Positions 6,203-11,520 of a DNA stretch of 11,520 bases are shown piece after piece. How positions within the stretch are numbered: the stretch's first letter is position 1; every line of letters starts with the position of its first letter. Origin of the DNA: a virus (lineage: Duplodnaviria; Heunggongvirae; Uroviricota; Caudoviricetes); IMG/VR virus record IMGVR_UViG_2579778535_000015; one strand, given 5' to 3'. The position numbers and the translations under genes were made by a program. The notes under the pieces are model-generated. The model saw only the letters and a list, made by a program, of their open reading frames with translations. It ran no database searches and was not told the DNA's origin.

Positions 6203-6359
6203 AGCTTCAGCCCCTTGTATCCGTTAAATGATTCGGCAACAATCATCACCCACCACGCGCGTAATCTCACCCCTGCGCCGTTCTCCCGCCACGGCGACAA
6301 CAAAAAGCAGTAACCCCCTCCGCACGCACATGCGACCATGCCACACAGGGAGGGAGCAG

Positions 6360-7469
6360 ATGACCGACACCACCATGCAATTGCTCAGTCAGAGCACAGA
6401 CCCCGTGAAAATGCCGGATTTTGATATTCTTGCGGAGGGTAAAACGCTGTCCGGCGTGGCAGAGCGCCTGATGAGCCTGTCACTGACCGACAACCGGGGA
6501 TTTGAAGCAGACCAGCTCACCATCACGCTGGATGATGCTGATGGTCAGTTGCAGTTGCCGCCACGGGGCGCTCGCCTGACGGTTCTCATTGGCTGGAAAG
6601 GCGAACCGCTGACAGAAAAAGGCACTTACATTGTTGATGAAATTGCTCATGAAGGACCGCCCGACAGACTGACCATTTCAGCCAGAAGCGCAGATTTTCG
6701 GGATGAATTTAACGTCAAGCGCGAAGTGTCCTGGCATGATGTGACCGTTGAGCGAGTGGTATCCGCCATCGCTCATCGGTACGGTCTGAAACCGCAAATC
6801 AGCGAAATGCTGATGGATATCGAAATCGACCACGCCGACCAGACCGAAGAAAGTGACATGTCCTTCCTTACGCGCATGGCGGAAATGCTGGGCGCAATCA
6901 CCACGGTAAAAAGCGGTAATCTGTTATTCATCATGCCCGGCGGTGGCGTGAACGCACAGGGCCAGCCGTTGCCATCGTTCGCCATCACACGCAGCAGCGG
7001 CGATCGCCATCAGTTCCGCATTGCGGACCGCGAAGCGTATACGGGGGTACGCGCCTACTGGCTTGATCTTAATTACGGGAAAAAGAAAAAAGTCAGCGTG
7101 AAACGCCGCAAACCGCCAAAACCCAAAAAGGAGAAAAGCAGCAGCCGTGAAGGTGATTATATGGAAGGCGCGGAAGGCAATGTGTTTGTGTTACGCAAGA
7201 CCTATCAGAACGAACAGGCAGCAAGACGCGCAGCGGCGGCAAAGTGGCAGCAACTACAACGCGGAGCCGCATCATTCTCCATCACGCTGGCGCGTGGACG
7301 TGCAGAACTCTACCCCGAAATGCATGGTACGGTAACAGGATTTAAAAGCGAGATTGATAATCAGGACTGGATCATTGCAAAAGCCGAGCACACCATTGAT
7401 AACAGTGGCTTTACCACGCAGCTTGAGCTTGAGGCAAAAATCCCGGAATGGATAGCGGAAACAGAGTGA
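6360..7469 (+). CDS. D: P2 gpD-like tail protein (late control gene D family)
   Basis: Plus-strand ORF (track 6228..7469). I place the start at the ATG at 6360 (MTDTTMQLLSQS...), which follows a GGGAGGGAG Shine-Dalgarno. About 370 aa, immediately upstream of ogr as in P2. The family assignment rests on position, size and recalled sequence character, not on a search. Confidence 0.78.
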   Translation: MTDTTMQLLSQSTDPVKMPDFDILAEGKTLSGVAERLMSLSLTDNRGFEADQLTITLDDADGQLQLPPRGARLTVLIGWKGEPLTEKGTYIVDEIAHEGPPDRLTISARSADFRDEFNVKREVSWHDVTVERVVSAIAHRYGLKPQISEMLMDIEIDHADQTEESDMSFLTRMAEMLGAITTVKSGNLLFIMPGGGVNAQGQPLPSFAITRSSGDRHQFRIADREAYTGVRAYWLDLNYGKKKKVSVKRRKPPKPKKEKSSSREGDYMEGAEGNVFVLRKTYQNEQAARRAAAAKWQQLQRGAASFSITLARGRAELYPEMHGTVTGFKSEIDNQDWIIAKAEHTIDNSGFTTQLELEAKIPEWIAETE

Positions 7470-7511: not shown

Positions 7512-7772
7512 ATGTTCCGTTGTCCGCTTTGTGGCGCATCTGCCCGTATCCGCACCAGTCGTCCGGAAAATGATTCAAACACCGTGCGGCAAAAGTATTA
7601 CCAGTGTAACAACCTGGAATGCGGCGTATGCTTCTCAACACTGGAAGCTTTCCATAAATTCACATCGAAACACGCCTCCGGCGTTCACTCATCAGAAGGT
7701 ATCCCGTGGCATGAGCTGCCAGCTTCACACAGGGGAAACAATCAGATGAGTTTGCCTTTATCTCAGAATTAA
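7512..7772 (+). CDS. ogr: Ogr/Delta-family zinc-finger late transcription activator
   Basis: 86-aa ORF starting MFRCPLCGASARIRTSR, with a second Cys pair CNNLEC (C-x2-C ... C-x4-C), matching recalled P2 Ogr (MFHCPLC...CQNVNC). GGGAGG Shine-Dalgarno 5 nt upstream. Directly downstream of D. Confidence 0.85.
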   Translation: MFRCPLCGASARIRTSRPENDSNTVRQKYYQCNNLECGVCFSTLEAFHKFTSKHASGVHSSEGIPWHELPASHRGNNQMSLPLSQN

Positions 7773-8170
7773 CAGGCAGAATTGCCGGAGTAACAAAAAA
7801 AGCGATACACCCATTTACCCGGCAGTACCACTCCCCCGCCCCATAGCTGGCAGTGAGGCGGGATGTTTTGCCTACCCGCCAGCAGGCACCATCGTGGAAA
7901 TATCCAACATTGAAGGACGCCCGGATAAGCCTGTTATCAGGCAAATCTTACCCATCGGTCATAACCTGCCTGATGTAAAGCCCGGCGAACAATTGCAACA
8001 ACAGCGTGCAGAAGTGTTTCAGCATGTCACGACTGACGGAAGCTGGCGCAGAAAAACCGACCAGCAAATCCAAGAAGAAAAGCGCGTAAAACGATCACTG
8101 CTGATGTGGCGTTTCTTTATACAAGCTGCTATTTGCGATATGCTGAACACATCAACCTGTGGAGTGCATT

Positions 8171-8797
8171 ATGAAACAAAAATCAAAGTCTGCTGCCATT
8201 GCTGCTATTGCTACAGCTCTGACAGCATCACTGGCTCCGGTGCCAGCTAAAAGCACGATACTACCAACAACAGTTATTGAATCCGTGACACACGCCAGAG
8301 TGGTTTCAATGCTTACATTTGAGCATCATGATGGTCAGGTGTTTCTGCCTCTTGAAGAAGCTATTGAATATATCAACGGGCTGAATGACAACATGCGTGC
8401 CGCGCTCAATGCAGTCATTGAAGAACGACAGAACAGAGGCAAGGGAGCTCTGTTTGCTGACAAAACCGCAAAAATCATAAAAATATGCGAAGAGTCACTT
8501 AAGCAGCACAGCCGTGTTAAAGAGGCTGTCAAAATTGTAATGGATCCGGATAACCTGGCAAAAATGTATCCGGATAGCATGGAGCAAAGAATCGCCTATC
8601 GCAATAAACTGGTTCGTTTTGGTCGGGCAATTGCGCAGGGAGAGTTTATCGCTCGTGATGCCATCAACGCCATCAAACGAAGCACCGCACCAGACAAAAC
8701 GACCAGCCTAGGCAATACGCTGTCTGACGGAAATGTGAAAGCAATGATTATTGCCGAGCATAAAAACATGGGACTCCCGGCACCGGAGTTTTCCTGA
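8171..8797 (+). CDS. Hypothetical protein, upstream partner of the YafO-like gene; possible N-terminal signal peptide
   Basis: ORF in track as 8159..8797. I prefer the ATG at 8171 (MKQKSKSAAIAAIATALTASLAPVPAKS...), which has GGAG 6 nt upstream. About 208 aa, predicted mostly helical, no family recognised by eye. Its stop overlaps the next gene's ATG (TGATG at 8795-8799). Confidence 0.55.
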   Translation: MKQKSKSAAIAAIATALTASLAPVPAKSTILPTTVIESVTHARVVSMLTFEHHDGQVFLPLEEAIEYINGLNDNMRAALNAVIEERQNRGKGALFADKTAKIIKICEESLKQHSRVKEAVKIVMDPDNLAKMYPDSMEQRIAYRNKLVRFGRAIAQGEFIARDAINAIKRSTAPDKTTSLGNTLSDGNVKAMIIAEHKNMGLPAPEFS

Positions 8798-9177
8798 TGG
8801 CAAGCAAAGTAAGCATTCATAAAGATGTTGAATACCAGGACATTGCAAAAGTTTACGGAAAGGCTCTGGAAAACTGGTTAAATACCGGTGTTCTCCCTGA
8901 CAGATTCGGCAATGAAGGGCAGTGGGAAGATAACGCAAGATTATGTGGTTCGTTTGTATATAAATTACACATAAGACTACCGTCAGAACCACCATGGAAG
9001 AAAAGCAAAGCCCAAATAGACAGAACTTCAAATATCTATCTGGTTTATACAAGGCACTGGATGGATTATGACAATATACAAATCATCAGCATCATGGCCC
9101 CAGATGCTCACGAAAAAGCCAAAACTTCTTTCATGGCTGAGCTGGAAAGACGGGCAGAAGAATTCCAGAACTCATAA
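8797..9177 (+). CDS. YafO-like toxin-domain protein (type II TA toxin family, ribosome-dependent mRNA interferase)
   Basis: 126-aa ORF. Recalled E. coli YafO shares GVLPDxFG, the HIxL block, the stretch RTSNIYLVYTRHWMDYDNIQIISIMAPDAHEKA (YafO: RTNDEAHLVYCQGAFDEQAWLLIAILKPEPHKLA) and a C-terminal MAE..R..F. Start is translationally coupled to the upstream ORF. Followed by a strong intrinsic terminator. Confidence 0.62.
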   Translation: MASKVSIHKDVEYQDIAKVYGKALENWLNTGVLPDRFGNEGQWEDNARLCGSFVYKLHIRLPSEPPWKKSKAQIDRTSNIYLVYTRHWMDYDNIQIISIMAPDAHEKAKTSFMAELERRAEEFQNS

Positions 9178-9200
9178 ATTGCCTGATTTTCTCCCAGAAA

Positions 9201-9232
9201 CCCGCAGCGTAAAAACTGCGGGTTTTCTTTTT
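9201..9232 (+). terminator. Rho-independent terminator after the YafO-like gene
   Basis: CCCGCAG (9201-9207), loop CGTAAAAA, CTGCGGG (9216-9222), followed by TTTTCTTTTT (9223-9232). Confidence 0.75.
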
Positions 9233-9256
9233 GGTGCCCTCACAAATGAGGGCACC
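9233..9256. repeat. Perfect 10-bp inverted repeat GGTGCCCTCA-CAAA-TGAGGGCACC
   Basis: Directly abuts the terminator T-tract. No U-tract follows on the plus strand, so it is probably not a second terminator. Possibly a protein-binding palindrome or RNA structure. Confidence 0.4.
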
Positions 9257-9279
9257 ATACATAAGCAATAGGCATAACA

Positions 9280-9317
9280 GATCGATGCAATAAATCCGAT
9301 CGATAAAAACGATCGAT
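9280..9317. promoter_or_regulatory. Cluster of three GATCGAT direct repeats (three Dam GATC sites) upstream of the com-like gene
   Basis: GATCGAT at 9280-9286, 9298-9304 and 9311-9317, in a 38-bp AT-rich stretch about 45-80 bp upstream of the com start. Resembles the three-GATC regulatory region upstream of the Mu mom promoter. Confidence 0.45.
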
Positions 9318-9361
9318 TTGTTATCATATCGGCAGCAGTAACCACACAAGAGGTGCCGCAA

Positions 9362-9559
9362 ATGACGCAAAATGTACGATGCAAAAATTGCAACAAACTA
9401 CTTGCCCGCGCCTCATTTCACTACATTGAAATAAAATGTCCGCGCTGCAAAACACTTAACCAGATAACGAGAGCCATCGAGCACCCCACACACATGAGGA
9501 GTTATGACCGTGGGGATCGCAATCCAGCACCAACCAGCACATACACCGGAACACACTAA
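9362..9559 (+). CDS. com: Com-like zinc-finger translational activator (phage Mu Com family)
   Basis: Track ORF 9353..9559 begins at GTG. I prefer the ATG at 9362 (MTQNVRCKNCNKLLARASFHYIEIKCPRCKTLNQI...), with AAGAGGTG Shine-Dalgarno 6 nt upstream. Two CxxC pairs (CKNC, CPRC) and a recalled Mu Com-like N-terminal region. The 3' end overlaps the start of the methyltransferase gene by 56 nt. Confidence 0.75.
   Translation: MTQNVRCKNCNKLLARASFHYIEIKCPRCKTLNQITRAIEHPTHMRSYDRGDRNPAPTSTYTGTH
9484..9515 (+). promoter_or_regulatory. Candidate mRNA stem-loop enclosing the methyltransferase Shine-Dalgarno and start codon
   Basis: CCCCAC (9484-9489) can pair with GTGGGG (9510-9515). The 20-nt loop contains GAGGAG (9496-9501) and the ATG at 9504. 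By analogy with Mu, Com binding could open this structure. Stability not computed. Confidence 0.35.
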
Positions 9560-10295
9560 GGTTTATCAGACTGACAATGCCACGCTCTGTCGTGGGAATG
9601 CGCTGGAAATATTGCCGCTGATTGAGCCAGAAAGCATTGATGCCTTAATCACTGACCCACCTTACAGTTCGGGTGCGACACACAAGGCCGGACGCACCAA
9701 CCAGGGCAGCCATGCAAAATATCTGAACGGCGAGAACCTTCACCGCTTTGATGGGTTCGCGGGTGAAAACATGGACGCCCGTTCGTGGGCTTACTGGACA
9801 CAATTATGGATGGCACAGGCACACCGCGCAGTCAGGCCGGGCGGTTATGCCCTGGTATTTACTGACTGGCGACAACTACCAGCTTTAACCGATGCGTTTC
9901 AGGCCAGTGGCTTTACATGGCGCGGCATCATTGCGTGGAACAAAGGGAGGGGGTCACGAACACCACATACCGGGTATTTCCGGCATCAGTGCGAATACAT
10001 CGTCTGGGGCAGCAAAGGCCATTTAGATAAATCGCCTTCGGGACCGTTCGACGGCTGCATGACGTTCCCGGTTATCCCGTCAAAGAAAATGCACCCAACC
10101 GGAAAACCAGAAGAACTAATGGCGGAACTGGTCAGGACTGTGAATAGTGGCGGAACAGTCCTTGATCCTTTTATGGGGTCAGGGACAACGGGTGTGGCTG
10201 CACTGAAAGCAGGACGCAAATTTATTGGTATAGAAACCAGTGATCATTATTTTGATGTAGCAACACAACGGCTCAAAACGGCGATCGAACCATAA
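9504..10295 (+). CDS. Beta-class amino DNA methyltransferase (N6-adenine or N4-cytosine), probable orphan phage methyltransferase
   Basis: 263-aa ORF with motif IV (ITDPPYSSG) near the N-terminus and motif I (FMGSGTTGVAALKAGRKFIGIE) near the C-terminus, the order that defines beta-class amino-MTases. No adjacent endonuclease gene. Start could be the ATG at 9504 or the GTG at 9510. Confidence 0.85.
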   Translation: MTVGIAIQHQPAHTPEHTKVYQTDNATLCRGNALEILPLIEPESIDALITDPPYSSGATHKAGRTNQGSHAKYLNGENLHRFDGFAGENMDARSWAYWTQLWMAQAHRAVRPGGYALVFTDWRQLPALTDAFQASGFTWRGIIAWNKGRGSRTPHTGYFRHQCEYIVWGSKGHLDKSPSGPFDGCMTFPVIPSKKMHPTGKPEELMAELVRTVNSGGTVLDPFMGSGTTGVAALKAGRKFIGIETSDHYFDVATQRLKTAIEP

Positions 10296-10299
10296 GACA

Positions 10300-10321
10300 A
10301 AGCCCGCAATGTTGCGGGCTT
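10300..10321. terminator. Palindromic hairpin after the methyltransferase gene (weak or bidirectional terminator candidate)
   Basis: AAGCCCGCAA-TG-TTGCGGGCTT is a perfect 10-bp inverted repeat, 5 bp after the MTase stop. The downstream T-tract on the plus strand is poor (TT then ACTCTACC). Confidence 0.45.
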
Positions 10322-10524
10322 ACTCTACCTCTCGAAAATGTGGTCACTGCGTGGACATACGCTGATACAAATCCTTTTATATCAATAAATTAAATCTTTG
10401 TTTTTTTCATCAACAAGGATTTTCACGTTTGTGTTACCTGTATGAGACGAGAGTTAACCGGACAAGTGTGCCATAATCTCGCGGCCAGGCATACTTGCGA
10501 AGATTTCAGGTATAAGGATACGTA

Positions 10525-11520
10525 ATGATACAACCTATTTCCGGCCCTCCTCCTGGGCAACCACCAGGTCAGGGAGATAATCTGCCGTCTGGCACGGGCA
10601 ATCAGCCTTTATCCAGTCAGCAACGTACTTCGCTGGAAAGCTTAATGACGAAAGTGACCTCACTGACGCAACAGCAAAGAGCAGAACTGTGGGCGGGTAT
10701 CAGGCACGATATTGGTCTGTCGGGAGATTCACCGCTGCTTTCGCGTCACTTCCCTGCCGCTGAGCATAATCTGGCGCAACGTCTGCTGGCCGCGCAAAAA
10801 AGCCATTCTGCCCGCCAGCTTTTAGCGCAATTAGGGGAGTATTTACGTCTGGGGAATAATCGTCAGGCGGTCACGGATTATATCCGTCATAACTTTGGTC
10901 AGACGCCGCTGAATCAGCTCTCACCGGAGCAATTAAAAACCATTCTCACCCTGTTGCAGGAAGGGAAGATGGTTATTCCGCAACCACAGCAGCGCGAGGC
11001 GACCGACCGTCCTTTATTACCGGCGGAGCACAATGCGCTAAAACAGCTGGTGACCAAACTTGCGGCGGCAACGGGGGAACCCAGCAAACAGATCTGGCAA
11101 TCGATGCTGGAACTTTCCGGGGTGAAAGATGGCGAGTTAATTCCAGCGAAACTGTTTAACCATCTGGTGACCTGGCTACAGGCGCGTCAGACGCTAAGCC
11201 AGCAAAATACGCCGACGCTGGAATCACTACAGATGACGCTAAAACAACCTTTAGATGCCAGTGAACTGGCGGCGTTATCGGCATATATCCAGCAAAAATA
11301 TGGTCTTTCTGCGCAATCATCGCTTTCTTCTGCCCAGGCCGAGGATATTCTTAATCAGCTTTATCAACGGCGGGTTAAAGGGATTGATCCGCGTGTTATG
11401 CAACCGCTGCTTAATCCTTTTCCACCGATGATGGACACGTTGCAAAATATGGCAACGCGTCCCGCGCTGTGGATACTGTTAGTCGCGATTATCCTGATGC
11501 TGGTCTGGCTGGTTCGTTAA
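10525..11520 (+). CDS. flk: Flagellar regulator Flk (tail-anchored inner-membrane protein)
   Basis: 331-aa ORF with Pro/Gly/Gln-rich N-terminus (MIQPISGPPPGQPPGQG) and a C-terminal hydrophobic anchor (ALWILLVAIILMLVWLVR). Length and sequence match my recollection of enterobacterial Flk. AAGGAT Shine-Dalgarno upstream of the ATG. Confidence 0.8.
   Translation: MIQPISGPPPGQPPGQGDNLPSGTGNQPLSSQQRTSLESLMTKVTSLTQQQRAELWAGIRHDIGLSGDSPLLSRHFPAAEHNLAQRLLAAQKSHSARQLLAQLGEYLRLGNNRQAVTDYIRHNFGQTPLNQLSPEQLKTILTLLQEGKMVIPQPQQREATDRPLLPAEHNALKQLVTKLAAATGEPSKQIWQSMLELSGVKDGELIPAKLFNHLVTWLQARQTLSQQNTPTLESLQMTLKQPLDASELAALSAYIQQKYGLSAQSSLSSAQAEDILNQLYQRRVKGIDPRVMQPLLNPFPPMMDTLQNMATRPALWILLVAIILMLVWLVR

Follow-up and report, generated by a model that had tools for sequence, protein, structure and literature searches.

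The junction between com and a downstream DNA methyltransferase (MTase) gene in the stretch of viral DNA analyzed here (IMG/VR record IMGVR_UViG_2579778535_000015, 11,520 nucleotides; hereafter the window) carries a stem-loop that, judged by its sequence, is a direct relative of the com–mom switch of phage Mu and so a new example of a known mechanism. The analysis shows the anatomy of the element and its homology to the Mu element, and the comparison of related cassettes reveals selective constraint on the element at the RNA level. By homology with Mu (PMC6483171), it is likely that Com-dependent opening of the stem controls translation of the MTase. Mu-like translational gating had been put forward in a preliminary description of this DNA, and the proposal now draws support from the homology of the RNA element itself and not from analogy alone.

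A com–methyltransferase cassette in a P2-like prophage

The window captures the right end of a P2-like prophage of E. coli together with the adjoining chromosomal gene flk (10525-11520). ORFs on its minus strand match the P2-type tail module in size and order, and the plus strand carries, in this order, a gpD homologue (6228-7469), an ogr-like regulator (7512-7772), a 212-aa ORF, a YafO toxin gene, a terminator, com and the MTase gene. The intrinsic-terminator-like hairpin with its T-run (9197..9226, plus strand; 11-bp stem in a terminator scan), which is also found in phage P88, insulates the last two genes from the upstream prophage genes, and a G + C-rich hairpin located right after the MTase stop codon (10300..10321, scored on the minus strand in the terminator scan) closes the unit. 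Positions 9280-10321 are a self-contained “moron” cassette, that is, added cargo with its own expression signals, in the P2-like prophage. This cassette carries the whole regulatory front of the Mu mom operon, from a promoter region rich in GATC through com to the Com binding site and the stem-loop that inhibits translation, with the payload swapped from Mom to a beta-class DNA MTase. Of 5426 complete E. coli genomes, 762 contain matches to the 1.2-kb com–MTase cassette and 171 have at least 80% of it. The cassette is 95% identical in Chuche, a close, P2-like phage with integrase and Cox, where the two genes are annotated as “gpCom control of modification” and “DNA methyltransferase”.

The intact com gene (9362..9559, plus strand) runs from an ATG at 9362 to a stop codon at 9557-9559, is preceded by an SD sequence (GAGG, 9350-9353) with 8-nt spacing, and encodes a 65-aa, four-cysteine zinc ribbon protein homologous to the Mu Com translational activator. 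Com matches Pfam Zn_ribbon_Com (PF10122) at 9.5e-12, above the cutoff of that family, and PHROG 13819, “gpCom control of modification”, at 2e-17; NCBIfam contains no model for Com. The protein is 48% identical to Mu Com, with C7, C10, C26 and C29 aligning with the Mu Com cysteines. The E. coli RefSeq label for Com (hits H1-H15) is “Com family DNA-binding transcriptional regulator”, unlike the RNA-binding translational activator described in the experimental literature on Mu Com.

The gene behind com (9504..10295, plus strand) encodes a beta-class N6-adenine/N4-cytosine DNA MTase of 263 aa when read from ATG 9504 and 261 aa from GTG 9510. It matches Pfam N6_N4_Mtase (PF01555) at 3.4e-33 and PHROG 67 at 1e-81, and its closest solved structures in the PDB are of the DpnA/M.HpyAVI type (9e-21). 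The DPPY motif (LITDPPYSSG) lies N-terminal to the FxGxG AdoMet motif (DPFMGSGTTG), which is the beta-class order, and blastp places the payload with the MTase reference, not with Mom. Identity with M.EcoGII, a non-specific, unexpressed MTase of a prophage, was considered and rejected, as M.EcoGII has 349 aa; the M.EcoGII paper makes no mention of com or mom (PMC5778455).

Upstream of com, three GATC(GA) sites at 9280, 9298 and 9311 overlap a promoter-like site (9280..9327, plus strand) with a -35 element, TCGATA, at 9300 and a TG-extended -10 element, TATCAT, that ends at 9327. Two of the three GATC sites form a palindrome, CGATCGATAAAAACGATCG (9297-9315), which overlaps the -35. Clusters of two to three GATC sites precede com in Mu and in every enterobacterial com cassette examined, whereas non-enteric cassettes have none or one. 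In Mu, Dam/OxyR control of the mom promoter acts through its three GATC sites. The presence of a cluster of three in both the window and Mu suggests that the Dam-sensing part of the operon has been retained too. The promoter itself differs from that of Mu, with an extended -10 instead of the Mu C-type -35/T6/-10 arrangement, and since the Mu C protein is absent from the P2-like host phage, the transcriptional logic may differ as well.

Several observations concern the surrounding prophage. The YafO-family toxin gene (8797-9177; Pfam 1e-27) and the 212-aa ORF in front of it together span 8159-9177, with the end of the ORF overlapping the toxin ATG at base 8797. The 212-aa ORF is far longer than a YafN-type antitoxin and has no match in Pfam, PHROGs or NCBIfam. 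In Chuche, a hok/mok-like gene occupies the position of this pair, which is therefore a variable cargo slot. The final stretch similar to P2-like phages (500465-2, P884B11 and PhiR44_2) is 10331-10396, about 130 nt before flk, and this is probably the attachment-site end of the prophage.

Anatomy of the stem-loop and the methyltransferase start codon

The translation-inhibition stem-loop (9484..9515, plus strand) has a 6-bp stem composed of a 5' arm, CCCCAC (9484-9489), and a 3' arm, GTGGGG (9510-9515). The loop contains the MTase SD sequence GAGGAG (9496..9501, plus strand) and an ATG (9504-9506), while a GTG (9510-9512) lies within the 3' arm. The preliminary description had drawn this stem around the SD and the ATG, with coordinates that were all exact, and had proposed a folding calculation. 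RNAfold returned the outer 6-bp stem as well as an inner helix, with an energy of -13.2 kcal/mol for 9484-9515, 87% of the ensemble and z = -2.5 (3 of 200 shuffles were as stable). As the SD sits mostly in the loop, the start codon is the masked part. The inner helix, CAUGA/UUAUG (9493..9506, plus strand; 9493-9497 with 9502-9506, 5 bp), pairs ATG 9504. It was ruled out as a conserved feature, being limited to the E. coli clade and neither conserved nor compensated: in loci L173-L175 it is weakened without compensation and in L036 it is missing.

A 6-bp stem is unremarkable alone. If loops of 3-24 nt are allowed, perfect 6-bp stems number 139 on the plus strand of the window, of which 26 have at least five G-C pairs, and 26 places in the window fold at least as stably within 32 nt. 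We therefore discarded the stem alone as evidence; its significance comes from comparison.

In Mu, a translation-inhibition structure (TIS) that adjoins the Com site holds the mom GUG start in its stem (PMC6483171). The Mu com–mom junction (NC_000929) reads GCCUGCGAGCAUCCCAC-GGAGAAACAUU-GUGGGA and the window junction GCCAUCGAGCACCCCAC-ACACAUGAGGAGUUAUGACC-GUGGGG. The TIS stem CCCAC/GUGGG of Mu aligns base for base with the window stem; in both, the GUG start belongs to the 3' arm, the SD falls within the loop, and the Com site reads GCC-NNN-GAG-CAY-CC. The overlap between com and the regulated gene, taken from the GTG onwards, is 50 nt in Mu and window alike. The two elements differ in that the window loop is 20 nt long rather than 11 nt and contains the clade-specific inner helix and the extra ATG. 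Moreover, the window stem is the more stable of the two (-13.2 versus -8.7 kcal/mol) and its sixth pair is C-G where that of Mu is U-A.

The only plausible MTase starts are ATG 9504 and GTG 9510, both within com, as the preliminary description had stated. The MTase frame is closed upstream by a TGA at 9495-9497, and after GTG 9510 the next ATG, GTG or TTG is a TTG inside the conserved core. Counted from ATG 9504 the MTase gene overlaps com, in another frame, by 56 nt. GTG 9510 follows the SD at a distance of 8 nt and ATG 9504 at one of 2 nt, and a purine-rich SD is found at the equivalent place in all aligned variants. The usual spacing between SD and start in E. coli is 5-9 nt, so that ATG 9504 is too close to GAGGAG for good initiation. 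GTG 9510 (9510..9512, plus strand) is invariant in 28/28 aligned variants and is the homologue of the Mu mom GUG. In L036, where the MTase is 74% identical, no ATG stands at the position of 9504 and translation can start at the GTG only. Given this invariance, the Mu homology and the 8-nt spacing, we take GTG 9510 as the conserved start; the MTase thus most likely begins there and not at the annotated ATG 9504. The earlier claim that a stem-loop encloses the MTase start is upheld, with the GTG in the 3' arm as the likelier start in place of the ATG.

A reading in which ATG 9504 is the functional start, masked by the inner helix and the outer stem together, is possible but doubtful. RefSeq and the annotation of phage Chuche both begin the gene at this ATG, the predicted inner helix pairs it, and all E. 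coli and Salmonella copies of 95-100% identity keep it. These points are set against its 2-nt distance from GAGGAG, its absence from L036, the uncompensated weakening or loss of the helix that would mask it, and the invariance of a GTG that is the documented Mu mom start (PMC6483171). ATG 9504 may be used additionally or may be a longest-ORF artefact. The RefSeq annotation of Mu mom itself (NC_000929; locus L002, 878 versus 908) starts at ATG 35877, inside the Com-binding hairpin and 30 nt upstream of GUG 35907, which the literature places in the TIS stem; Mu mom and the window MTase are both annotated from an upstream ATG, and both look like longest-ORF calls.

The N-terminal extension of the MTase noted earlier was borne out, as 22-24 residues precede the (G)NATL motif in the window compared to 6-8 in relatives without com. 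It is the 50-56 nt shared with the com tail that code for the additional residues. The codons that follow the GTG specify VGNK... in Mom and C5 cassettes and in L036, and VGIA... in the window. First codons common to different payloads fit a model in which recombination immediately 3' of the stem exchanges the payload. The most suitable interpretation of the extension is that it represents the portable 5' portion of the regulatory cassette, where this overlaps the com tail.

Comparative evidence for the RNA element and the Com site

To the comparison we brought 164 loci with Com homologues (130 non-redundant), drawn from one genome per species and from IMG/VR. Mu and 30 distinct enterobacterial variants share an element of the form GCC-NNN-GAG-CAY-CCCAC, a loop with the SD, and GTGGG(R). 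In these enterobacterial variants the element is fused to three unrelated enzyme families, Mom, beta-class MTase and C5-cytosine MTases; its loop is either 11 or 20 nt long, and the arms stay complementary across both lengths. The stem is 100% paired in the 28 aligned variants, compared to 33-58% when the partner is slid by 1-3 columns. At 9484:9515, 19 variants have C-G and 9 have U-A, and where C has changed to U once, in the column of 9489, pairing is preserved as G-U. As this covariation amounts to about one evolutionary event that separates two clades, it is supportive, weak statistically and not decisive.

Codon usage in com argues more directly. In the 30 variants, synonymous third positions vary in all 14 conserved-residue codons of the zinc ribbon. 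By contrast, the third positions of the Ala (9473-9475), Glu (9479-9481) and Pro (9485-9487) codons are invariant in 30/30, those at 9475 and 9481 being inside the Com motif, and the next codon, Thr, which supplies the first loop base, varies again synonymously. This synonymous freeze inside the element, compared with drift in the zinc ribbon, indicates that selection acts on the RNA and not only on the Com tail.

A covariance model, R1, was built from Mom- and C5-MTase-linked elements only, with every beta-class-MTase-linked sequence (the type of the window) excluded. Its only significant match in the window is 9461-9527, with 35.9 bits and an E of about 6e-9 (rough calibration); the runner-up scored 10.4 bits. 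An Rfam scan of 9150-9750 returned no relevant family, only sub-threshold noise, and no family for this com/TIS element was found in Rfam.

Across the wider family, folding energies for -50 to +15 of com junctions against dinucleotide shuffles gave a mean z of -1.64, with 36% below -2, compared to -0.69 for com start regions and -0.24 for gene interiors (p = 2e-5 and 2e-9, values that overstate independence, as the junction sequences are related to one another). The mean unpaired probability of SD plus start did not differ significantly family-wide between junctions (0.42) and the start of com itself (0.47; p = 0.14); this measure is crude, with start codons chosen heuristically, and the z-score test was used instead. 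Distant clades follow the same logic with different sequences, in that a Com hairpin lies in or next to a helix predicted to sequester the SD or the start. In Acinetobacter an 8-bp helix, the 3' arm of which lies 4 nt before the AUG, encloses a Com hairpin that shows clear covariation (UA 6, CG 5). In Methylophaga there are three nested helices, one that includes the AUG, an anti-SD/SD helix and the Com hairpin. The Com hairpin is thus nested in the masking helix in these two clades and sits beside it in Mu.

Viral contigs searched with a pattern of the Mu-type element gave 124 matches on 120 stretches, 39 of them with a Com ribbon upstream. These 39 precede the same three enzyme classes and no other payload; the remaining 85, which are without Com, were treated as chance.

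Mu Com recognizes CC(N)2-3GAG in a hairpin loop, with a SELEX consensus of NGAGNNCC(N)2-3GAGNNCCNN, and binds a 19-mer, GAAUGCCUGCGAGCAUCCC, in Mu (PMC6483171). The predicted recognition motif of the window, GAGAGCCAUCGAGCACC (9469..9485, plus strand), aligns with the Mu 19-mer site and matches the SELEX bipartite consensus exactly; GAGNNCC(N)2-3GAGNNCC occurs once in the 11.5-kb window, with 0.02 occurrences expected by chance. Among 70 non-redundant com junctions, 57 have CC(N)2-3GAG within 80 nt upstream of the downstream start (median position -32) compared to 6.3% of background windows, and 43 have the bipartite motif compared to 0.33%.

With its two final bases the motif reaches into the inhibitory stem, where they open the 5' arm. 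Pair counts in the 28 variants point, tentatively, to a candidate Com-binding hairpin (9471..9484, plus strand) that is homologous to AUGC-CUGCGA-GCAU of Mu, with pairs G9471-C9484, G9473-C9482 and C9474-G9481 and a loop of 9475-9480. It differs from the Mu hairpin by an A9472/A9483 mismatch; thus three of the four pairs can form in the window, for which RNAfold does not predict this hairpin and favours a different small one. The pair 9471:9484 covaries (GC 19, AU 8, GU 1 in the 28 variants), so that column 9484 covaries both with 9471 in the Com hairpin and with 9515 in the inhibitory stem. One nucleotide, C9484, can therefore belong to either helix, which suggests a helix-swap switch whereby Com would capture a base of the inhibitory stem.

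Proposed translational gating and relation to known systems

Taken together, the likely course of events by homology with Mu is as follows. In the com–MTase mRNA, the hairpin 9484-9489/9510-9515 would hold the MTase start closed. Com, translated from the same mRNA, would bind 9469-9485 and compete with the pairing of C9484 and C9485; because the Com site overlaps the 5' arm of the stem and C9484 fits either helix, Com binding would open the stem and expose the start for initiation at GTG 9510. As Com is encoded on the same mRNA, the MTase would be made only once Com accumulates, which would provide a delay, and transcripts without com would stay silent. The stability of a hairpin over a start codon has an established relation to translation, and one of -13 kcal/mol is expected to depress initiation strongly.

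Ribosomes that translate com must unwind the stem, and part of any activation could thus be cis coupling. That such ribosomes are the main means of opening the stem, leaving the Com protein dispensable or secondary, appears improbable. The com ORF, which has a good SD (GAGG, 8-nt spacing), crosses the entire hairpin and ends 44 nt past it, and this overlap geometry is kept in most family members. However, the Com motif is frozen at synonymous sites and enriched family-wide about 30 nt upstream of the start, neither of which is needed for coupling, and Mu Com binds this RNA directly (PMC6483171). In addition, com ends before the downstream start in the Haemophilus types, L112 and L137, yet the motif is still present. 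It is very unlikely that the inverted repeat has no RNA function and is due to chance or to overlapping coding (Com tail ...EHPT...RG..., MTase VG...), despite the abundance of 6-bp stems on this strand (139), the location of both arms in doubly coding sequence and a covariation that is a single event, given that the codons of a Com tail reported as disordered and dispensable for RNA binding (PMC6483171) are frozen synonymously while those of the zinc ribbon drift, that the arms are complementary across three downstream proteins and two loop lengths, that the covariance-model match is significant, and that distant clades swap the sequence but keep a helix that sequesters start or SD.

The window does not contain a Mu mom operon in the strict sense, in which a transposable Mu-like phage carries Mom at its right end and the C protein controls it; its host is a P2-like prophage (P2-type tail, gpD and ogr), while Mu is a transposable phage, and its payload is a beta-class amino-MTase rather than Mom. 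Among the closest known systems are the enterobacterial Mom and C5 cassettes (IMG/VR and Citrobacter; L176, L076, L183, L191-L193). Their arms, CCCCAC/GTGGGG, are identical to those of the window, and they share with it a 20-nt loop that begins A(C/T)ACA, an AAGGA/GAGGAG SD, the GTG-GGG start and the GATC cluster, but their downstream enzymes differ, as do the first residues (VGNK... versus VGIA...).

Com homologues upstream of MTases have already been described in Mu-like prophages. Hin1523 (FluMu), Nma1821 (Pnm1), Hia5 and B3 ORF47/48 each have a com homologue directly upstream of a DNA adenine MTase, for which mom-like control was proposed, with possible Com sites at the 5' end of the MTase gene, at hin1523 (PMC3299994). 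The window shares with these systems a com homologue directly upstream of a DNA MTase at the mom position. However, the Hia5/Hin1523 MTases belong to another family, with the motif KQAPLPFIGQKR and N-terminal motifs unlike those of the window MTase, and Hia5-type proteins from the Haemophilus loci gave no blastp match to the window MTase at E <= 1e-3. Haemophilus com encodes 39 aa and ends before the MTase start, whereas the window com overlaps the MTase; and while the Hia5/Hin1523 systems sit in Mu-like prophages, the P2-like window keeps the Mu-type TIS sequence itself.

In enterobacterial phages the element is common down to the first two to four codons, whether it stands before Mom, a beta-class amino-MTase or a C5-MTase. 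Whether com, the Com site and the TIS constitute a portable gate on translation, with recombination taking place immediately 3' of the start codon, is, in our estimation, evenly balanced. Our literature search on com–MTase in P2-like phages found no paper specific to this cassette and no systematic comparative RNA description of the com/TIS module. The new elements here are a member in a P2-like prophage, whose MTase is of a different family, direct evidence for retention of the RNA element of Mu itself, a likely start-codon correction and the view of the module as a portable gate. If it is Com-gated, the MTase would probably be silent in ordinary cultures and be missed by methylome surveys, being on only at full cassette expression. 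More broadly, the comparison presents an RNA regulator described for a single phage gene, Mu mom, as a reusable control unit for potentially toxic DNA-modification enzymes.

The wider collection of loci yielded some further observations. Com homologues across Proteobacteria (loci L074-L233, for example L085, L081, L112 and L076) precede at least five enzyme families: Mom, beta-class amino-MTase, Dam-type, Hia5/Hin1523-type and C5-MTase. Methylophaga thiooxydans DMS010 has at least 12 scaffolds (L081, L088, L093-L102) with one and the same com plus Dam-type MTase cassette, several of them at an equal distance, 446 nt, from the scaffold end; a Mu-like element present in many copies may account for this, or else a repeat at which the assembly broke. 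A contig assigned to the Firmicute Vagococcus sp. WN89Y (L075) contains com and an MTase ~90% identical to the E. coli cassette and likely reflects contamination or a misassigned contig, not transfer. Finally, two IMG/VR prophage contigs (L156 and L171) carry cassettes that are near-identical but for MTase ORFs shortened to 66 and 97 codons, with com and the stem-loop intact, and these look like decaying payloads.
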